A stretch of 13,616 bases of DNA from a virus, in the UHGV virus genome UHGV-0269933; one strand, written 5' to 3'. Under the pieces are notes generated by a model. The model saw only the letters and a program-made list of their open reading frames with translations, did not search any database and was not told the DNA's origin. The translations under genes were made by a program, and so were the position numbers. Of the stretch, positions 1 through 11,022 are shown in pieces (positions within the stretch are counted from its first letter, which is position 1; each line of letters starts with the position of its first letter).

Positions 1-25
1 TACTAATCAGTTAAGTGTTTGTTTT

Positions 26-63
26 AAAAGGCGCTACTCGGCATGGGGAAGCGCCTTTTTTAT
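26..63 (+). repeat. attL-type direct repeat (38 bp), also a Rho-independent terminator hairpin
   Basis: aaaaggcgctactcggcatggggaagcgccttttttat is identical to 11239..11276. GGCGCT...AGCGCC stem followed by a T-run. Confidence 0.8.
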
Positions 64-115: not shown

Positions 116-145
116 TTGAACGAAATCACCAACTAATCGTAATAT
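116..145 (+). promoter_or_regulatory. Sigma70-like promoter for the Abi-like gene (TTGAAC-N18-TAATAT)
   Basis: -35 TTGAAC at 116..121 and -10 TAATAT at 140..145. SD AAGGGG at 164..169 upstream of ATG 180. Confidence 0.4.
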
Positions 146-170
146 GATAAACCTCTACATATGAAGGGGT

Positions 171-944
171 ATGGTGTACATGAAGTCTATTCTTGATGAA
201 CTTAGTACTGATATTGAGCGCGCTGAAAGTCTACAGTCCCAGCTGATTAGCGTAGCTACTGGCGGACCTGCGTTACCATATGAATATCAGGAGCTAAGAC
301 GTTTTTTTGTTGAATCACCACTATATAGCAACATTATTCCCTCTTTCGTAAAAACAAACCGCAACACCGACCAATTTTGGCAATTTATTAAATACAAATT
401 TGGTACATATGCTGAAAGAAGGCAGTACATTTGGGATGAATTCCAAGAATTGATGGACTATCTGGAGGGTAAAAACAAAGCACCCGCAGATGAGGACATC
501 TCTGATGTATTAAGACGGTTTGATGAGGATGGTGTTCACACCGTGTGGATGAAAGCACTAGAACGGCGCCACACAGACCCGGATGGGGCGATAACCTCTG
601 CAAGAACACTTCTAGAAACGGTTTGCAAGCACATTCTTGATGATATGGATGTCCCCTATAATAATAAAAATATAGAAATGTCAGAGCTTTATAAAATACT
701 ATCAAAAGAACTTAACTTATCTGCCGACCAGCATACTGAAAGTATTTTCAAACAAATTCTTGGTGGTTGTTCAGCCGTTGTAAATGGGCTAGGTACTCTT
801 CGTAATAAACTTGGTGACGCACATGGAAAGAATCGCTCATCAGTTAAACCATCACCAAGGCATGCAGAACTCGCTGTAAATTTATCAGGCTCAATGGCTC
901 TTTTTCTAATTAGCTCATGGTTAAACCTTAAAGATAAAAATTAA
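171..944 (+). CDS. Abortive-infection family protein (Abi_C-like C-terminal domain); likely true start ATG at 180
   Basis: 257-aa ORF. C-terminal LGTLRNKLGDAHGK motif after a TLLETVCKHIL helix resembles the Abi_C family signature (from memory). AT-rich relative to flanks, own promoter and SD. Confidence 0.55.
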   Translation: MVYMKSILDELSTDIERAESLQSQLISVATGGPALPYEYQELRRFFVESPLYSNIIPSFVKTNRNTDQFWQFIKYKFGTYAERRQYIWDEFQELMDYLEGKNKAPADEDISDVLRRFDEDGVHTVWMKALERRHTDPDGAITSARTLLETVCKHILDDMDVPYNNKNIEMSELYKILSKELNLSADQHTESIFKQILGGCSAVVNGLGTLRNKLGDAHGKNRSSVKPSPRHAELAVNLSGSMALFLISSWLNLKDKN

Positions 945-969
945 TGAACTATGGACGTGATATGACCAA

Positions 970-1227
970 TTAGTTAATCATTATGTTCATCGGTTTAAGC
1001 TGTTTCTGGCTGTTCACCAGCCAATCTTGCATGTATTTGCACCAGGTACTGAACATCGCCTCATCAGTGCCTGGATAGGTGTACAGATACCCCATAAGGA
1101 CTTTATCGGTAATCTCATCCTCTTGATCCCAACCAATGATGAATTGACGAAATAGGCCGTATGATTTAGCCGGATCCGTATTCCTCCACGTTTCCACTAC
1201 TACATCGAATGCCGGAACCCTGAATGT
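970..1227 (-). pseudogene. 3' remnant of an unknown gene truncated by the IS66-family element
   Basis: Track ORF 970..1293; its N-terminal 22 aa are translation of the IS terminal repeat. Only the C-terminal ~85 aa (RVPAFDVVVETWRNTDPAKSYGLFRQF...) lie outside the IS. No start codon or SD. Confidence 0.35.
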
Positions 1228-2001
1228 GTAAGCGTGCAGTGAGAACCGTATTGACGAAGTGAAGCTGGTCAGGCAGGCAGAGTAACCCGCCACGGGAGCA
1301 GAGCACCCACCCGGTTCACAGGCCAGTCGGCGATGACATCAAGTACATAATGCAGATAGCGTTCCGGATCCACGCCGTTTAATTTGCACGTCCCGATAAG
1401 ACTGTACAGTGACGCACCGCGCTCACCACCATGATCCGAGCCGAAGAACAGCCAGTTTTTTCTCCCCAGACTGACCCGTCGTAGGGCGTTTTCGGCAATG
1501 TTATTATCCACCTCCACCCAGCCATCTTCTGCATAGCGGATCAGCGCCGGCCACTGGTTCAGCGCATACCCGAACGCCTTCGCCAGTTCTGAGTGCCTTG
1601 AGAGGGTTTTCTGTTTCTCCCGCAGCCACCCCTCCAGTGACGCCAGCAGCGGCAGCACTTTTTGGTGCCGGACTGCCTGCCGTTCCTCTGCTCTTTTACC
1701 TCTGATCTCCGACTCGATGGCATACAGCTCGCCGATCCGTTTCAGCGCCTCTTGCGAATGTCTGTCCTCTGGCTTTACTGGTGTTCATGTATTTTTCAAA
1801 GCCGGGGAGTGTAACTGACAGCGCTCGAAATACCTCTCGCGGTGTGCTAATCACTCGCTGGTGCTCCCGGCCAAATAATCTGATCAGAGGACCACTCAGT
1901 TTGATAGTTGTCATGACTTCTGCACATGGATTCATAGCCGCCTCAGTTAATTTTGGAGAAAGGAAACGGTTAGGCTTTTTTTAGCTCAAAATAGCGCTTA
2001 C
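1228..2001 (-). mobile_element. Internally deleted IS66-family insertion sequence remnant (~0.77 kb)
   Basis: GTAAGCG-type terminal sequences at both ends (1228 on +, 2001 on -). Contains the C-terminal ~170 aa of an IS66 TnpC-like transposase. No matching 8-bp target-site duplication (ctgaatgt vs catttcct). Confidence 0.7.
1269..1783 (-). pseudogene. IS66-family transposase (TnpC) C-terminal fragment
   Basis: Translation ...ALKRIGELYAIESEIRG...LAKAFGYALNQWPALIRYAEDGWVEVDNNIAENALRRVSLGRKNWLFFGSDHGGERGASLYSLIGTCKLNGVDPERYL...LLPW matches the conserved TnpC C-terminus. In-frame stop lies upstream at ~1786; N-terminal two-thirds absent. Confidence 0.8.
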
Positions 2002-2161
2002 CATTTCCTTTCTTTTTAGATGGTGTTTTCATTAAAAACATATAGTTACATCGAAGAAGAACAGAAACGGCAAATCGCAGAAAATTTTCATAAATAGCAA
2101 GAATCTGCGAGGTCGCCGCCCCGTAGCAGGCCGAATTGCCCGAAAGGACCCGCGCCGAAAT

Positions 2162-2268
2162 CGCTCAAACTTCAATCGGCCGAGTTTTCGAGGCGTTAAA
2201 GAGTAGATATGGGAATATCACATATGTAAAAACCAGCCGCGCTCAAACTTCAATCGGCCGAGTTTTCG
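2162..2268. repeat. Pair of perfect 29-bp direct repeats (2162..2190, 2240..2268) with embedded 9-bp-stem hairpin in second copy
   Basis: cgctcaaacttcaatcggccgagttttcg occurs twice, 78 bp apart. Second copy extends into aatcggccg-agtttt-cggccgatt inverted repeat. Confidence 0.6.
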
Positions 2269-2307
2269 GCCGATTACCAGGTCCGCCGGGTCATTCGGGC
2301 CTGTCGG

Positions 2308-2694
2308 TCAGCCAATCAACGTGCTTTTCCCGCCGCGAGCCTGCTGGCGCACACGCTCGGCCTTAAGGCAAAGAGATGCTTCAGGCTTAGCAGGTACAGG
2401 AACATGGCAGGTTTCAGAGGTCCGGGGAATGTTATTGATCCATTCAATAACTTCACTCAGATACCACGCCTTGCGCCCCTCAGTGACCTGGACGCGTACT
2501 GGAAACTCACCTCGCGCTTCGAGATTCAGCAATGTACGGCGGCTCAGCGTGGTGAGTTCTATGACCTGATTCATATCAACCAGGCGCTCACTGACGTTCA
2601 TTTTGTCTGCCATCTCCAGCAGTTCACCCACCACTGGATCCGGATAGAGAGCATTGGCGGTGGCCATCAGGCTGTTATTTTTATCTTGCATCAT
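2308..2694 (-). CDS. AlpA/Vis-family HTH DNA-binding protein (second copy, with N- and C-terminal extensions)
   Basis: Core MNQVIELTTLSRRTLLNLEARGEFPVRVQVTEGRKAWYLSEVIEWIN fits the phage AlpA/excisionase-type HTH pattern. Start ATGATG at 2694/2691 with AAGGAG SD; the 144-aa track ORF start is an unsupported upstream extension. Confidence 0.55.
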   Translation of the reverse strand: MMQDKNNSLMATANALYPDPVVGELLEMADKMNVSERLVDMNQVIELTTLSRRTLLNLEARGEFPVRVQVTEGRKAWYLSEVIEWINNIPRTSETCHVPVPAKPEASLCLKAERVRQQARGGKSTLIG

Positions 2695-2701
2695 AATCTC
2701 C

Positions 2702-3043
2702 TTACACCAGTGCCAGTGGCTGAACAGAAATACCAGAGCCAACGAACGCTGCTACTTTTGCAGAAAGCGTGGTTACATCATCAGGCCAGTTAAGGGCATC
2801 AACATTCAGCACGCCAGCTTTGTAGACCTGAGCATGTGTCTGGCTTGCGGTATCAACAGCAAAGCAAGATACATAGACAGCCTGCCCGGCATGCGCCCCA
2901 TCCCAGACCACCAAAGCCCCATTGGTAGCATCCTGCATAAGTGGAGTCAGCGCGGGAATAACGCCCTTTGCTCCAGCGAAGATACCCAGAGTTGTCACCA
3001 GCGCTTCAGTACCGGCCGCCAGTTCAGTGTAATGCGTCGTCAT
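2702..3043 (-). CDS. Phage head decoration protein, lambda gpD-like
   Basis: 113 aa; ALTPLMQDATNGALVVWDG...VYKAG...AAFVGSGISV aligns with lambda gpD (AMTPLMLDTSSRKLVAWDG...FYKSG...TAFAGTAISIV). AAGGAG SD; translationally coupled to upstream capsid gene. Confidence 0.75.
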   Translation of the reverse strand: MTTHYTELAAGTEALVTTLGIFAGAKGVIPALTPLMQDATNGALVVWDGAHAGQAVYVSCFAVDTASQTHAQVYKAGVLNVDALNWPDDVTTLSAKVAAFVGSGISVQPLALV

Positions 3044-3052
3044 GATTACTCC

Positions 3053-4093
3053 TTAGGCCACGCGAACGGTGACAAAACGGTTGATACGGGCCGGGATAGG
3101 CTGCGGTGCGGAGTGGGTCTGAACGTACTCAATAGCTGGGTCGCCAGGAACAATGTAGTTCTTTGGCGCCAGCTCAGCTTTGGTAATACCCATACGGATG
3201 AGCTCTGGATCCTGAATTCCGCCGTAGGCCACAATGCCCTGCAGGGCGGTGTTTCCCAGCACCATCAAATCAGGATCGAGGAAGTGCTTTTCGGTGCCGT
3301 CTTCGTCGGTATAGCGACCGCTATAAACCACAATAGCCACATCGCCCATATAGCCTTTAAAGCTCACTGAATCGCCCAGGTCTTTAAGTGCTGTTTCAAG
3401 CTGTGCGTTGGAGCCGCGGCGCGTGTCGAGTACATCTTTAATCGCTTTGAAAGAACGATATTTTTTCCAGACGTTCCCGCCCATAATGATGATATTGGTT
3501 ACGCCTTCACTCAGCTCTGAATAGGTTTCAATATCGTCATTTGGATCAAACGTCGTTTTATCTTTACCTGACCAGGCAGCGCCACCAGCCTGAGTGATTA
3601 TATTCTGGGATTTGATATTCCAGTCCAGCTCATAACGCTCGATCCCTTCCCCCTCAATAATATTTTTCCCGGTAGTTACAGCCTGAACAGCCAGCCATTC
3701 AATACGCGCACGAATAGCAATAGACTGTTTGAGGATTGACTGTTTTACCTTGATATTGCGGGTATCAAGCGTGCTGTATTGATCAGGAGTAACACCAGCA
3801 GGACGAACAGCCAGTTTGTTAGGGTCAATGTTGCTCTTTGGTTTCATGTAGCCAGGACGGATAGACTTGGACTCATATCCCTCATCACGCGCCACCTTAC
3901 TACCCACCATAGGCGAACAGAACGCCGCGATTGGAATATTTGGGTCGTCGATAGTGTCCAGGATGATATCGCGCGTTTCAAAAGTAACTGCGCGGGTAAA
4001 GAATAAATCAGTGAACAGGGTTTTTAGTTGCTTCTGAATATCCTCAGCGCTAACAACCCGAACCAGCGCCGCAGGTGAATATAAATCTGGCAT
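3053..4093 (-). CDS. Major capsid protein, lambda gpE-like
   Basis: 346 aa, full-length collinear similarity to lambda gpE (341 aa): PGYMKPK..., ITQAGGAAWSGKDKTTFDPNDDIETY..., FRSFKAIKDVLDTRRGSNAQLETALKDLG...YMGDVAIVVYSG...MVLGNT...YGGIQD...GDPA... SD GAGG upstream of ATG. Confidence 0.9.
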   Translation of the reverse strand: MPDLYSPAALVRVVSAEDIQKQLKTLFTDLFFTRAVTFETRDIILDTIDDPNIPIAAFCSPMVGSKVARDEGYESKSIRPGYMKPKSNIDPNKLAVRPAGVTPDQYSTLDTRNIKVKQSILKQSIAIRARIEWLAVQAVTTGKNIIEGEGIERYELDWNIKSQNIITQAGGAAWSGKDKTTFDPNDDIETYSELSEGVTNIIIMGGNVWKKYRSFKAIKDVLDTRRGSNAQLETALKDLGDSVSFKGYMGDVAIVVYSGRYTDEDGTEKHFLDPDLMVLGNTALQGIVAYGGIQDPELIRMGITKAELAPKNYIVPGDPAIEYVQTHSAPQPIPARINRFVTVRVA

Positions 4094-4366: not shown

Positions 4367-4646
4367 GGTGAAAATCACCCTACCCACAGCTTTAAAATTA
4401 AAAAATATCCTTTTAAGTGTTCACCCGTTCACCTTTGCGAATTTCTTAATTAAATTCATGTAGTTATAGGGTGAATACTACTCTTTCAGGTATTCACTAG
4501 TGTTCACCCTACCCTTCACCCTTTAGGGCAAAAAACAATCAAAAGGTGAACAGGTGAATACTTGGTGAATACTTAATAAATAAGTGTCCACCCCTTAACA
4601 CTCTGTTATTAATAGAATTTTAAACAGGGTGAATACTGGTGAACAC
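4367..4646. repeat. Iteron cluster of P4 ori/crr type (TGTTCACC / GTATTCACC), ~12 copies in both orientations
   Basis: TGTTCACC at 4418, 4426, 4501; GGTGAACA/GGTGAATAC at 4470, 4545, 4553, 4564, 4628, 4638; variants at 4490, 4513, 4585; GGTGAAAATCACC palindrome at 4367. Matches the P4 type I iteron motif bound by alpha (recalled). Confidence 0.7.
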
Positions 4647-4659
4647 TTTATCTATAACT

Positions 4660-5361
4660 TTACTCTACCCCTTCATTCTCAGTAGTGATTGCACATGATG
4701 GCATCCAGTCGCCAGAATCATCATGCAGGGTTACGTTAGAGCGTATGCCATGTTTGGTTTTCCGCTTCTGGTATTCCTTCCCATACTCAACCATTGCGCC
4801 AGGCATATCTGTACCGAACCGCATCAGTGAGACAGGCTTACTCAGGCCATTGGCTCTCATGTATGCCAGATAGGCGTGATACAGGTACTTGCGCGGGCTG
4901 AATGGCACTATCTCGGCATTACCGATAAACATCCCGTCACACACTACCGACGCCATCAGGTAGCCGCAGAAGTCCACCAGCGAATCACCTTCACGCTTGA
5001 TCGCCAGAGCCTCCTCTGATTTCTGCTGCTCATACAATAACCGTCTGGCTTCGTCCTGGTCTGCAAAACGTGTAAGCAGATGGCGGATAACTACAGCCAG
5101 TTCCCCTTCTATTTTCTCTGCCAGCATCGAGTCTCGCTCGTTTTCTGGTACAACCTCCGAGAAATTGAAAATAACCCGGCGCCGCGAAATCCCCCCGCTA
5201 CGGTCGCTGAATGTCATAGCATTGTTGTTTACCGCCAGCACCACCGCCGGAATACGGGTTGAATATGGTGCTTTATGTTTAGGATCGATAGACACCTTGT
5301 CACCACCAGTTATGGCCTTAATACCTGCACCATCGCCAGCGTACCGGGTCATATCAGGCAT
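4660..5361 (-). CDS. P4 alpha-type primase/helicase C-terminal (iteron-binding) domain homolog, stand-alone/truncated
   Basis: 233 aa beginning near the SF3-helicase arginine-finger region (AVVLAVNNNAMTFSDRSGGISRRRVIFNF). No Walker A/B or primase domain. Located immediately upstream of the TGTTCACC iterons, as the alpha 3' end is in P4. Confidence 0.55.
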   Translation of the reverse strand: MPDMTRYAGDGAGIKAITGGDKVSIDPKHKAPYSTRIPAVVLAVNNNAMTFSDRSGGISRRRVIFNFSEVVPENERDSMLAEKIEGELAVVIRHLLTRFADQDEARRLLYEQQKSEEALAIKREGDSLVDFCGYLMASVVCDGMFIGNAEIVPFSPRKYLYHAYLAYMRANGLSKPVSLMRFGTDMPGAMVEYGKEYQKRKTKHGIRSNVTLHDDSGDWMPSCAITTENEGVE

Positions 5362-5427
5362 AATGATCGTAATGTTCCTTTATTTCATGAATCGTAATAG
5401 GCATAAATTCTCCTTGTTTGTCTAACC

Positions 5428-5620
5428 TGCCGCATTTAGTGCCGCGTTTAGCAATGCCGCACTTAGCGCCGCACCAGTTTTCTCAAAAAATTACGCAAAC
5501 CCAGTAATGACGTGGGTTTCAGTGAAATGCCGCACTTAGCGCGTGTATACAGGGACTAAGTGCGGCATTTGGTCATAAAACATACTAAATGCCGCACATG
5601 CCGCACTTACCGCCGCATTT
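5428..5620. repeat. Cluster of >=5 copies of ATGCCGCACTTAGCGC-like repeats including a 15-bp perfect inverted repeat
   Basis: Copies at ~5428, 5455, 5527, 5554 (inverted), 5588-5620. AAATGCCGCACTTAG-N16-CTAAGTGCGGCATTT at 5526..5571. Hairpin aaaccca/tgggttt at 5497..5519. Confidence 0.6.
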
Positions 5621-6983
5621 ACTCGACTGTTACCGGGTAAAGGTTCTCACCCTCGATGCGAATAATTTGCTCACTCTCCAGCTTGTCCAGCCAGCGCGGG
5701 AATGACTTTCTCACTTTGTCTGAGCCCAGCGTTGCACGCAGATCGTCTTTAATGACGGAGATAGTGCATGGCTCCCCCTTAGCTGTTCGGCTGCGAACTG
5801 CCTGCCATAGTGCATGATGGTTATCGCTAAGACGGGATACATGGGCCAGTTCAGGCTCAACCTCTTTAGCCTCTCTCGGCTGATCGTGCACAACCAGAGA
5901 GCAAACAAGCTCGCCATCTTCATCGGTGTAAAGCTCTGCCGTTCTCAGGTCATACGCTTTACGCTCTGGCTCCTCCGCGTCTTTCATCTTGGTACAGGTC
6001 AGAATAAGCGCTTTTCCATCCCCTTCACGCTTAACGTTAAATTCAGTATCAAGCGCAGCGCGGAAAGCACTGGAACCGCGAGCGCCTTTCCCTTCATCTT
6101 TGCCGGAGTGGTGAACTACCAGCACCGTTGCACCCGTTTTCTGTTTGATAACGTCACACCCTTCAATAAATGCCCCCATATCACGAGCATCGTTCTCGTC
6201 GTTACCGCCAAAACAACGGGCCAGCGTATCGATCACCACCATGCGAACCGGCACACCACATTCGGCTTCAATCTGCCTGGCAGCCAGAAGAACTTCTGTA
6301 ACCTCTGACTCACGCACCGGGAACACCGGACGATTGACCAGCCAGAGGTTGTCTGCCTGTATGCCATGCACCTGTTCCCATGCCCGTATACGCCGGGGAA
6401 CACCTACACCACCCTCGCCAACCACATACAGCACCGCGCCGGGAGTGACCTTCTTCCCCGCCCATGGCAGACCAGCAGCGATATGACAGGCCCACGACAC
6501 GGCAAGAAAACTCTTATACGAACCGCTGGGGCCGTAAATGCTGCACAGTGATTGCGCTGGCAGAAAGTGTTTAAGGATATAGTCCTGACGGATATCAAAG
6601 CCCTCAGAACCGCGAGAGAGAGGCAGCTTTGTCCTGAACTTTGCACCAGCATCAGGGAATACGCGGTGAATGCGCTGCACGTCAGACAGCATGGCATTCA
6701 TTTCCCCTTCGCCTATCTCTTCCACCAGCACAGAACGCCGCGCGGTAATCATATGTTTGCGGTCGGTATCGAGATACCCGGCATCACAAAGCTCCTCATA
6801 CGGCATTGCTGCTATCTGGTTGAGGCGAGCCACCAGCTTTCCGTAACGGGTAGTGGGGTCCTTATGCTGGTGGAGAGCTTTATCCAAATCGCTGCGACTG
6901 TACTGCTTGCCATGCGCCCACAGATACGAACAGGTGAACAAGGCATCCGATACGGTTTCTACAGCTGTCAGTTGTACCGTCAT
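5619..6983 (-). CDS. RepA-like replicative helicase / AAA_25 (RecA-fold) ATPase with N- and C-terminal accessory domains
   Basis: 454 aa; Walker A GPSGSYKS, Walker B-like VVIDTLARCF, HHSGKDEGKGARGSSA motif typical of RSF1010 RepA/DnaB-like helicases. ATGA overlap with upstream gene. Confidence 0.75.
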   Translation of the reverse strand: MTVQLTAVETVSDALFTCSYLWAHGKQYSRSDLDKALHQHKDPTTRYGKLVARLNQIAAMPYEELCDAGYLDTDRKHMITARRSVLVEEIGEGEMNAMLSDVQRIHRVFPDAGAKFRTKLPLSRGSEGFDIRQDYILKHFLPAQSLCSIYGPSGSYKSFLAVSWACHIAAGLPWAGKKVTPGAVLYVVGEGGVGVPRRIRAWEQVHGIQADNLWLVNRPVFPVRESEVTEVLLAARQIEAECGVPVRMVVIDTLARCFGGNDENDARDMGAFIEGCDVIKQKTGATVLVVHHSGKDEGKGARGSSAFRAALDTEFNVKREGDGKALILTCTKMKDAEEPERKAYDLRTAELYTDEDGELVCSLVVHDQPREAKEVEPELAHVSRLSDNHHALWQAVRSRTAKGEPCTISVIKDDLRATLGSDKVRKSFPRWLDKLESEQIIRIEGENLYPVTVE

Positions 6984-7348
6984 TTTGGAATGCCCCCGCT
7001 CATCTGGAATTTGCCGATCAGAGGATGGAACCAGTATGCAGAGCCATATTTGCGCTTAGCACTGCGCAGCACCAACCGTGCCGCTTCCCTGAACTTTTCA
7101 TCAGGTGCAACGAACCCGCCTGATTTCAGTTTAACCAGCATCACCCCTGTGTTTTTCGCCAGCTCCTCAGCCTTTTTGGTTGAGATACCGTATTCAGCAG
7201 CCAGTGTTGCTACTGGCGTCATACCCGGAGGGATTTCTCCGCCCTGACTATCGGTAAGTGATTTAACCTGAGCCTCAAGGCGCAAGACCTTCTCAACCAG
7301 CAGATCAACGCGGTTAGCCAGTTCGTTAAACTTCACATTGCTGATCAT
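6980..7348 (-). CDS. Hypothetical protein with N-terminal coiled coil and putative HTH
   Basis: 122 aa; TPVATLAAEYGISTKKAEELAK looks HTH-like. ATGA start/stop overlaps on both sides. Confidence 0.55.
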   Translation of the reverse strand: MISNVKFNELANRVDLLVEKVLRLEAQVKSLTDSQGGEIPPGMTPVATLAAEYGISTKKAEELAKNTGVMLVKLKSGGFVAPDEKFREAARLVLRSAKRKYGSAYWFHPLIGKFQMSGGIPK

Positions 7349-8634: not shown

Positions 8635-8844
8635 TCACGCTGCTTTGCTGCGGCTCTGCTGCCATGCTGTGACCTCAGAAAGAAGCCAACCAACGGCACG
8701 ACCTCCCAGCTTACGGCGGGCGGGAAAGCTCCCCTCTTTTTCCATCATGTATCGAGTGGTTCGACAAATACCGGTTAGCTGTCGGCACTCAGCCTCACGG
8801 ATAACTCTTTCTGCTGGCTGCTGGGATTGTTTAATATTGTTCAT
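8635..8844 (-). CDS. alpA: AlpA-family transcriptional regulator (prophage CP4-57-type)
   Basis: 69 aa from MNNIKQ; ...[43 protein letters not shown] is the AlpA HTH signature. The longer 81-aa reading would translate through a hairpin and has no SD. Confidence 0.75.
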
Positions 8845-8880
8845 AAAAAAATGCTCTCGTTCGCTAAGGTTCGAGAGCAT
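8845..8880 (-). terminator. Terminator-like hairpin with 9-bp perfect stem directly abutting the alpA start codon
   Basis: On the - strand, atgctctcg-aaccttagcgaa-cgagagcat followed by ttttttt then ATG of alpA. The 3' arm contains the only SD-like GAGAG. Confidence 0.45.
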
Positions 8881-8959: not shown

Positions 8960-9802
8960 TCAAGATAATTCTTTCCTGATTTTATCTAAAGAATCACTTC
9001 TTATGATTTTATCCAAGAAAGGTTTTACCGTTTGAGCTATGGCAAAGGACTCCTTTTCTCCATCCGGGAACAGGGATACTGCGAGTACGCCAAGAGATAT
9101 TTTGCTGTCGGTAGCGCTTTCCCATGACATCAAATCAATAAGTGGAATTATTCTGTAGTCAATTATTTTCCGTCTGACGCTCTCCCAGTCCCCTGAGACT
9201 GGCTTATCTGGTTCAGGTATTCCGAGTTCTTCGCGCCATTTTGGGAGGAGGTTCGTGAATGCTTCAATCAAAAGATCATCTCTGTTGTTTAAGTCAACAG
9301 TAATCATCACGTTTTCCACAACATCAGAAAGTAAGTTTACTGGCTCGCGCATGATAGCCCAAAACATACCGTTATCTGCTGTAAACAAATCCCCCACCAA
9401 ATCATCGTCAACTACTATTGGCTTTCCTTTCCAGTGACCTTTATCAGCATTGATTTTATTTAAAAATGCCAACTCAAATCTCATTAATGGTTTTATACCA
9501 TCGCCGTAACTTAATTTTAGCAAATCAGGCTGAGTCTTGTACTCGTATTCCTTTTGCTTTTCAAGAAACCATTCTTCTGCTTTGAGTTCCCCGAATGGAT
9601 CACCAAAATTATTGTTAAGCGGGTATTTAGCACCATATTGCAAACCATAGTCAGGGCAGTCTGTATTTTTTATTGCTAAATCATCGCATCGCCAATAGAG
9701 CTGACGAAACAAATCCTTATCAGACATATTTTCAAGGTCATCATATTTTTCCAAGCTGAATGACTTTGGTAAGTCTCTTTTACTGTTAATTTTTTTTGTC
9801 AT
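8960..9802 (-). CDS. Hypothetical protein (280 aa), AT-rich cargo gene translationally coupled to integrase; function unknown
   Basis: ATG overlaps the integrase stop codon (ATGA). Markedly lower GC than neighbours; acidic, Lys/Asp/Glu-rich; no motif recognised. Confidence 0.6.
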   Translation of the reverse strand: MTKKINSKRDLPKSFSLEKYDDLENMSDKDLFRQLYWRCDDLAIKNTDCPDYGLQYGAKYPLNNNFGDPFGELKAEEWFLEKQKEYEYKTQPDLLKLSYGDGIKPLMRFELAFLNKINADKGHWKGKPIVVDDDLVGDLFTADNGMFWAIMREPVNLLSDVVENVMITVDLNNRDDLLIEAFTNLLPKWREELGIPEPDKPVSGDWESVRRKIIDYRIIPLIDLMSWESATDSKISLGVLAVSLFPDGEKESFAIAQTVKPFLDKIIRSDSLDKIRKELS

Positions 9803-11022
9803 CTTGCGACCTCAAGAATAGTAACATTTGAGATATCAGAGGTAATAACCTCTAATCTCTGCATCCATTTATTCAGTGCATCCAGCTTTTCAGGTAAATA
9901 CTGACTGCGGTTATATACGGACATGACACCGCCCAGCGCATGGCCCAGAAGCTGCTCGACAACATGCGGAGCAATTCCCATGTTGTTCAGAGTCGTGGAA
10001 AACGTACGGCGTAGATCGTGAAGCGTCCACGGTTCAGAGTGGCCCAGACGCTTATACAACATCCTTCCCCACTGACTGACAGCTTCCGGTTTCTTTATCT
10101 CTCCAAGCAAAAGCCCTGTGCTTTGGTGCTGCTCTAAGAGCTGTTTGATAAATGGGCGGATATCTACGGGAATAGGACGTAGTATTTTCTCACCACCTTT
10201 GCTGTGCTCTTTAGGTACAGTCCAAACCCAATCACTTAGATCCCATTCGGTTACGCGAGACAATCTCAACTCCTGAGTTCGGCACCCAAACACTACTAGC
10301 AGACGTAGCAGCGAGGAGTAGTAGGGCTTGAATTTCAAGCCTGAACACTCCCGCCATATATCAGCCAGTTCTTGCCGGGTATGTTCCCTGTCCCGTTTAT
10401 TCTGTTTACGTCCAACATCATCAATGGTCAGATCGTCCAGGACATTACTCACCGCGTACCGATGAACACGGCAGAACTTGAGGGCTTGCTTACACATTTG
10501 CAGAAGATAGCCAGCAGCTACAGGAGCCTCATCTCTCACCCTGCTGAAACACTCCAGCCAGTGGCGGGTTTCGCACATAGAGAGGGGAAACGCCCCAATA
10601 TATGGGTAGATATGCTTATTGAGCTGTTCTATATGCTTTTCTACATTAGCCCGTTTATGAGATGCATATTCCCTTATCCAGTATTCAAGTGCCTCTTTTA
10701 CAGTTACCGGCTTAAGTGTTTCCTGTGTGGTGACAGTTAACTGGTGTTTCGGGTTCTTCCCCTCAGCAAGCCAGGCACGACATTGATCTCGCTTTGCCCT
10801 CGCGGCCTTAAGTGAAAGATCGGGATAGTTACCTAACTTCAAACGCTGAGGGGCAGTACTGCGTCCACCAATACGGTATGTAAAATACCAGGTCATTATG
10901 CCTATCTTTGACACCTTTACGCTCAGGCCATCACCATCAGCGTAAAAGCTATCACCGGGGCTTTCCCTCCCAACCATCTTGCGGAGCGATGTATCGCTTA
11001 ACTTGTTCGTTCCACCAGCCAT
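9799..11022 (-). CDS. int: Site-specific tyrosine recombinase, P4-type integrase (Arm-binding N-domain + catalytic domain)
   Basis: 407 aa. N-terminal ...DGDGLSVKVSKIGIMTWYFTYRIGG...LKLGNYPDLSLKAARAKRD arm-binding pattern. C-terminal HDLRRTFST...LGHALGGVMSVYNRSQY catalytic motifs, similar to P4 Int. GAGG SD. Confidence 0.9.
   Translation of the reverse strand: MAGGTNKLSDTSLRKMVGRESPGDSFYADGDGLSVKVSKIGIMTWYFTYRIGGRSTAPQRLKLGNYPDLSLKAARAKRDQCRAWLAEGKNPKHQLTVTTQETLKPVTVKEALEYWIREYASHKRANVEKHIEQLNKHIYPYIGAFPLSMCETRHWLECFSRVRDEAPVAAGYLLQMCKQALKFCRVHRYAVSNVLDDLTIDDVGRKQNKRDREHTRQELADIWRECSGLKFKPYYSSLLRLLVVFGCRTQELRLSRVTEWDLSDWVWTVPKEHSKGGEKILRPIPVDIRPFIKQLLEQHQSTGLLLGEIKKPEAVSQWGRMLYKRLGHSEPWTLHDLRRTFSTTLNNMGIAPHVVEQLLGHALGGVMSVYNRSQYLPEKLDALNKWMQRLEVITSDISNVTILEVAR

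Follow-up and report, generated by a model that had tools for sequence, protein, structure and literature searches.

In plasmid RSF1010 (IncQ), the helicase RepA carries no DNA-recognition domain; the 20-nt iterons are bound by a separate protein, RepC, and RepB' primes at the ssi sites (ssiA/ssiB). SV40 large T antigen and papillomavirus E1 are SF3 hexamers that form two opposed rings, with a non-winged-helix origin-binding domain N-terminal to the motor. Origins have also been described for phage satellites. In SaPIs and Gram-positive PICIs (Rep1, PriRep5; Ubeda et al.), the origin is located immediately 3' of rep and consists of 6–12 short iterons, some in opposite orientation, flanking an A/T-rich region (PMC9371898). 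The SaPI Rep protein is a self-loading helicase with an SF3 or SF6 AAA+ motor, in which a C-terminal winged helix sets the iteron specificity (PMC9371898). In Gram-negative PICIs, an A/T-rich region 3' of rep lies between two sets of iterons, and the rep-ori segment of EcCICFT073 supported plasmid replication (Fillol-Salom et al. 2018, PMC6092414).

Here, we describe a locus in the UHGV virus genome UHGV-0269933, analysed as one stretch of 13,616 nucleotides (the window). Positions 5427–5621 are likely to serve a phage-satellite island (PICI/cf-PICI-like), integrated next to yhdJ in E. coli, as its vegetative replication origin; the adjacent 454-aa protein would act as initiator as well as helicase. 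As in SaPIs and PICIs, the region lies immediately 3' of the proposed initiator gene, two iteron sets (5427–5477 and 5527–5621) flank a spacer (5478–5526), and one unit is inverted. In contrast to SaPIs, the motor has a RecA fold (AAA_25, RSF1010 RepA-like) rather than an SF3/SF6 fold, and the iterons are 12-nt units with a AAGTGNGG core, compared with 5–6 nt. Furthermore, a strict 30-nt inverted pair around a TATATA centre is conserved, and the helicase has no adjacent primase gene. By analogy, the window helicase may work like SaPI Rep, yet it falls outside the SaPI Rep protein families, lacking their AAA+ SF3/SF6 core. EcCICFT073 has the same island type and the same gene order, int-alpA-...-rep-ori, but its initiator is a primase/D5-type pri-rep, unrelated to the window helicase and iterons; a truncated copy of that type is found at 4390–5361.

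The ATPase core is homologous to the hexameric RepA helicase of RSF1010 (1g8y/1olo), and both systems are iteron-based. The island, however, encodes no RepC or RepB among the neighbouring ORFs; its helicase has a predicted winged helix of its own. We therefore rejected an IncQ oriV system, of which only the helicase core is common to both (no RepC/RepB' domains in the neighbouring ORFs). A classical iteron-plasmid origin (Rep_3/RepA-WH1-WH2, DnaA-assisted) was also rejected: Pfam returned only AAA_25, no DnaA box (at most one mismatch) occurs in 5362–5625, and the units are 12 nt long and partly inverted, as opposed to direct iterons of 17–22 bp. The likeness to SV40 large T antigen and E1, namely inverted short elements by an A/T-rich element and an origin-binding domain fused to a hexameric helicase, is a functional analogy only. 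The literature that we covered, which is incomplete, describes the PICI/SaPI origin in general and yielded nothing on this helicase type or motif, so a prior description is possible.

The repeat array and its conserved geometry

Nine 12-nt units (helicase-sense TAAGTGCGGCAT, matched perfectly by four of the nine) occupy positions 5427–5621, 3' of the helicase gene (5619–6983, minus strand) and 5' of the ORF 4660–5361. Eight run in the helicase orientation, at 5427, 5439, 5454, 5466, 5527, 5589, 5598, and 5610, while the unit at 5557–5568 is inverted. Cluster I (5589–5621, minus strand) contains three direct units, 5610–5621 (TAAATGCGGCGG), 5598–5609 (TAAGTGCGGCAT), and 5589–5600 (CATGTGCGGCAT), the first of which includes the helicase stop codon (5619–5621). 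Cluster II (5427–5477, minus strand) contains four direct units spaced 12–15 nt apart, 5466–5477 (CTGGTGCGGCGC), 5454–5465 (TAAGTGCGGCAT), 5439–5450 (TAAACGCGGCAC), and 5427–5438 (TAAATGCGGCAG). Between the clusters, a palindrome at 5525–5570 combines the inverted iteron (5557–5568) with a direct iteron (5527–5538) around the centre TGTATAC (5544–5550). A repeat search identified it as a perfect 15-bp inverted repeat, AAATGCCGCACTTAG (5525–5539) and CTAAGTGCGGCATTT (5556–5570) separated by N16. The initial annotation had reported this inverted repeat, together with at least five copies in both orientations at 5428–5620, just downstream of the helicase gene; all three observations were borne out, with nine units, one of them inverted, and a first unit that overlaps the stop codon.

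The 13.6-kb window contains 10 occurrences of the core TGCCGCAYTTA (at most one mismatch), 8 of them inside 5428–5621; by chance, 0.58 would be expected in the entire window, and no more than 3 were seen in 200 shuffles. No DNA similar to the repeat region was found in the phage collection. IHF-like sites, judged by eye only, were not robust across relatives and were dropped.

The conservation of the array was examined in two collections. The first comprised 80 loci with helicase homologues (51–99% identity; one genome per species), of which 76 were distinct, from many genera of the Enterobacterales, including Enterobacter, Kluyvera, Kosakonia, Pantoea, Pectobacterium, Serratia, Morganella, Xenorhabdus, and Gilliamella. 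The second comprised 80 IMG/VR loci, 68 of them typed, and about 150 related loci were compared in all. A locus was counted as positive when at least three copies of one GTGNGGN core were present within 260 nt past the helicase stop. This was the case directly past the stop in 65 of the 76 distinct loci, and the motif density after the stop was 21.3/kb versus 0.13/kb elsewhere in the loci (~160-fold enrichment). Repeats of matching design were also found in the IMG/VR contigs, most of which are 9–20 kb long and therefore satellite-sized. The initial annotation had suggested looking for these repeats beside RepA-type helicase genes in related islands, and both collections contain them there. 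Among the 11 loci below the strict GTGNGG threshold, some have variant cores in an unchanged layout (L082, L053, L078, L077, and L081 among them), and others have lost most of the repeat region (L055, L064, L065, L074, L076, and L079).

Across the approximately 150 loci, the order of elements is conserved: two or three direct units, the inverted pair, an A/T-rich spacer, and two to five further direct units. In terms of offsets past the stop, the units lie at ~10–30 (+), ~50 (–), ~80 (+), and 130–200 (+), with a gap at 100–130, and clusters I and II of the window occupy the conserved places at 10–30 and 130–200 nt. In 55 of 56 loci, the cores of the inverted pair are exactly 30 nt apart, even where the iteron sequence differs, and a conserved TGTATATAC-like or TGTATATA-like (TATATA) element is present between the arms. 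The unit sequence itself changes with lineage. The window's group has GTGCGGC; Pectobacterium, Serratia, and Morganella have GTGGGGG; Xenorhabdus has GTGAGGA; and others have GTGGGGA. The IMG/VR contigs add GTGCGC, GTGAG, and GTGGG(C/T). A fixed geometry with a changing unit sequence is expected of a binding-site array co-evolving with its reader. The genes that follow the repeats belong to more than 20 unrelated families across the loci, or are absent.

Further iteron variants with unchanged geometry were observed in the first 260 nt past the stop of IMG/VR loci L111/L112, L115–L117, and L128–L141. Their pairings with helicase residues 425–428 are AAGTGCGC(G/A) with RRGF/RKGF, AAGTGAG with KNM/KNF, and AAGTGGG(C/T/A) with KHL/KHF.

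The 49-nt spacer between the iteron sets (5478–5526) is composed of an A/T-rich tract (5478–5499; 23% G+C) and a short hairpin (5497–5519; AAACCCA-N9-TGGGTTT). The spacer of distant lineages is A/T-rich too, and the offsets 100–130 nt past the helicase stop, which correspond to it, are iteron-free in all loci, making 5478–5526 a candidate unwinding region. The initial annotation had considered the hairpin as a possible operon terminator, which was not borne out. Four of the seven stem pairs are A–T, and the T6 run (helicase strand) begins 7 nt beyond the stem, so that it does not have the G+C-rich stem directly abutting a U-run of an intrinsic (Rho-independent) terminator. A terminator scan returned none, the RNA fold of the hairpin is no better than that of shuffled sequences (z = −0.42), and the motif is confined to the window's sublineage. 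Spacers of this sublineage (5478–5526; L003–L017) retain CTGAAACC...ATTACTGG...TTTG followed by a T/A tract, with a short stem showing partly compensatory changes. This motif may be a structural origin element, a host-factor site, or a weak terminator.

The helicase and the candidate reader of the iterons

In the 454-aa product of 5619–6983, a helical N-domain (aa 1–~110) precedes the RecA-fold ATPase core (aa ~120–365), and a C-terminal domain (aa ~385–450) follows it. The only Pfam match in the protein is AAA_25 (E = 6e-43), in the core; sequence comparison with the PDB returned RSF1010 RepA (1g8y), the closest solved relative of the ATPase core, and the protein matches phrog_2850 over its full length. 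An AlphaFold model of the whole helicase reached a pLDDT of 79.5, and a Foldseek search with it returned Rad51, RadA, RepA (1olo), DnaB, and KaiC, all through the RecA-fold core. The C-terminal domain (aa 385–454) is encoded at 5622–5831 (minus strand), with the codon of S427 at 5703–5705. Residues 387–450 were modelled with the topology helix-helix-helix-strand-strand, at a pLDDT of 81–91 within the whole-protein model and 88.9 for the domain on its own. The structural neighbours of this domain are all winged-helix proteins (HrcA, DtxR, E2F/DP, LexA, MCM, and ORC), each match being insignificant (E-values above 0.1). The domain is accordingly described here as a predicted winged helix and is the proposed iteron reader.

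The N-domain (aa 1–125; window 6609–6983) is exchanged among relatives, with a mean pairwise identity of 0.14–0.30 versus 0.63–0.83 for the core. This contrast points to a three-module mosaic, in which the N-domain and the C-domain swap independently.

Between loci of differing iteron type, C-domain identity does not exceed 0.61, whereas the core reaches 0.96 and the N-domain 0.98. The iteron type goes with the final ~70 residues of the helicase, and not with the core, the 122-aa protein, or the downstream genes. In the Kluyvera locus L006, the helicase is 93–100% identical to that of the window up to about aa 400 and 20–33% identical over the final 60 aa. L006 carries GTGGGGAA iterons, and its DNA homology ends at window position 5764. 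From these alignments, L006 looks like a natural domain swap.

A mutual-information scan of the 454 alignment columns ranked residue 427 first for covariation with iteron type. This residue is the S of RKSF, at the start of predicted helix 3, the predicted recognition helix. It corresponds to the base after AGTG (the fourth core base), with S/G accompanying C, H/K accompanying G, and N accompanying A. The rule fits 68 of the 68 typed IMG/VR loci in a test that was only partly blind: the S, K, N, and H classes came from the first set, while the G class and the fourth-base grouping were fixed after the second set had been inspected. The loci counted for this covariation are related by descent and are not phylogenetically independent. 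Since the C-terminal codons adjoin the iterons, linkage and shared ancestry inflate the association and could yield much of the covariation without contact. The covariation is strong circumstantial evidence for the winged helix as the iteron reader, and not proof of contact.

The initial annotation had also suggested DNA-binding assays with the products of 5619–6983 and 6980–7348 (minus strand). The latter, a 122-aa protein of unknown function (orf122; phrog_6610) that forms one module with the helicase, does not track the iteron type and is not what determines specificity. In L006 it is 93% identical despite the different iterons, and only 18 of 82 loci encode it, while about 64 keep the repeat design without it. 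On these grounds, we rejected orf122 as the iteron binder. Nearly all of its carriers share the window-type helicase N-domain, with the exception of L064 (a partial hit). This distribution suggests that orf122 is probably a partner of the N-domain, perhaps as a loader or adaptor.

Island context and a second, orphan iteron set

The window is E. coli chromosome, its yhdJ-acrS flank matching E. coli genomes at 99.7% identity, and the island is integrated beside yhdJ. Its minus-strand genes encode a tyrosine integrase (9799–11022), a DUF6387 protein, an AlpA regulator (8635–8880), small ORFs, orf122, and the helicase. In E. coli HZ13 and SCU-125, the left arm runs past the repeats into small genes, followed by those for capsid, protease, portal, connector, HNH, terS, and terL. 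This is the gene organisation of capsid-forming PICI satellites (bioRxiv 10.1101/2022.09.08.507074). The order expected of a satellite island (int, alpA, rep, and then packaging/interference genes) was found when the window and its intact relatives were considered together.

In the intact relatives, the origin region is followed by a small gene, the start of which is retained here at 5354–5415 (minus strand; RBS 5410–5415, ATG at 5404) as 16 codons. In an alignment that included HZ13 and SCU-125, homology with every relative (L001, L003, and L005 included) ends at 5361–5364, inside this small gene, and the position marks a recombination or deletion joint. The ATG of a 233-aa primase remnant (5359–5361) lies exactly at the joint. 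The island is truncated at 5361 and may no longer be mobile.

The ORF 4660–5361 represents the C-terminal 233 aa only of a pri-rep/D5-type primase. Directly 3' of this truncated gene, at ~4390–4660, is a second set of iterons, GGTGAATAC/GGTGAACAC (TGTTCACC-type; GGTGAAYAC), which is unrelated to the 5427–5621 units and is also conserved in classical E. coli PICIs, next to their intact 'DNA primase family' genes. The region 4390–4660 thus has the appearance of an orphan origin without a full-length initiator, and the island is a hybrid between a RepA-helicase satellite and a pri-rep PICI. The initial annotation had placed the repeats between two replication genes and had credited the island with two distinct iteron sets. 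The helicase gene is intact, while its presumed counterpart is the truncated pri-rep remnant; likewise, the second set is real and unrelated, but the two sets do not amount to two working systems, and they are present together because the hybrid island carries a truncated second replicon.

Other elements occupy positions 171–4093 of the window: an Abi_C abortive-infection-like protein (171–944, plus strand), an IS66-family transposase fragment (1269–1658), a second AlpA-like ORF (2308–2742), a lambda gpD-like head decoration protein (2702–3043), and a lambda gpE-type major capsid protein (3053–4093). They are the remains of the second satellite and its cargo.

Origin function, rival explanations, and implications

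The initial annotation had named the repeats as a possible cognate origin or operator for the RepA-type system. An origin is supported by the conservation in 65 of 76 loci, the covariation with the C-domain, and the PICI/SaPI layout. It is favoured over an operator because the downstream genes are unrelated between loci and the layout equals that of the published PICI/SaPI ori (PMC6092414, PMC9371898). We infer iteron binding, melting, helicase loading, and replication as the following series of events. The C-terminal winged helix of the helicase would bind the 12-nt iterons (TAAGTGCGGCAT). Copies on the inverted pair, and on the direct arrays to either side of it, would let the RecA-fold rings assemble in opposing orientations. 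Opening of the duplex would follow, at the TGTATAC centre and/or within the A/T-rich spacer. With no primase gene next to that of the helicase, primers would have to be supplied by the host or a helper. RecA-fold helicases of the RepA/DnaB type normally depend on a separate initiator or loader, which counts against this scheme.

The repeats could instead be an operator, at which the winged helix or another regulator controls transcription into the downstream (packaging) genes, or autoregulation, with no replication initiation. The helicase gene lies on one side of them and the RBS of the following gene on the other, their palindromic sites around a TATA-like hexamer resemble operator/−10 arrangements, and many iteron origins double as autoregulatory operators. 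However, a promoter scan detected no sigma-70-like promoter in 5362–5620, and nine sites distributed across 195 bp with an A/T-rich gap are origin-like rather than operator-like. Because the same repeat design is followed by genes of at least 20 unrelated families, or by none, we rejected the operator of a specific downstream gene as the main role. We regard a purely regulatory function as unlikely, while a regulatory side-role alongside the origin is possible. It is quite unlikely that the repeats are bound by some other protein, such as orf122 or a helper-phage or host protein, to which the helicase would be recruited in the way that RSF1010 RepA depends on RepC. This arrangement has a precedent in that RSF1010 RepA, for all its similarity to the ATPase core, does not itself recognise its origin, and orf122 does share a module with the helicase. 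Nevertheless, orf122 is conserved where the iterons differ and missing from most loci, the neighbouring ORFs include no RepC- or RepB-like gene, and the iteron type follows the helicase C-domain and residue 427.

We consider it highly improbable that the region is mainly a transcription stop, a REP/BIME-like host repeat, or a packaging site without any role in replication, a set of readings that is already largely refuted. In favour of a stop at 5497–5519 are the 7-bp stem, the T6 run that follows 7 nt on in the helicase strand, and some compensatory changes in the stem among close relatives. The terminator scan and the RNA fold speak against it, as does the absence of the hairpin from most of the helicase family, where the iterons remain, and the entire window has no match in Rfam that would indicate a known RNA family. 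Of 5426 complete E. coli genomes, only 4 contain the repeat region, each time adjoining this helicase gene, and we rejected a dispersed host repeat for this reason. As for packaging, the repeats of the relatives are linked to the helicase gene and not to terminase genes.

Returning to the origin at 5427–5621, the PICI-type, rep-adjacent layout is already known and is expected for a satellite. New here are the class to which the helicase belongs, a palindrome with a rigid 30-nt spacing, and a simple correspondence between residue and base. More tentatively, these features could define an undescribed family of self-loading RecA-fold (RepA/DnaB-class) replicative helicases. Such helicases would recognise their own dsDNA origin through a swappable C-terminal winged helix, following a near one-residue/one-base rule (residue 427 S/G, H/K, or N versus C, G, or A at core position 4). 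Their entry point would be a rigid inverted-iteron site of 30 nt with TATATA at its centre, and these bacterial-type enzymes would need no separate initiator or loader, like the SF3/SF6 helicases of viruses and SaPIs.

Satellite islands of the PICI and cf-PICI types are vehicles for virulence and defence genes, and it is the replication module that determines their compatibility and induction. A rep-then-ori layout on a RecA-fold, RepA-type motor suggests convergence or modular domain exchange. With its natural iteron variants, the apparent swap in L006, and a single candidate specificity residue, the family would offer a compact test system for helicase loading without a separate initiator or loader. 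The motif AAGTGNGG in its fixed geometry would mark the origin of hundreds of enterobacterial satellites that are now annotated only by a 'helicase RepA family protein'.
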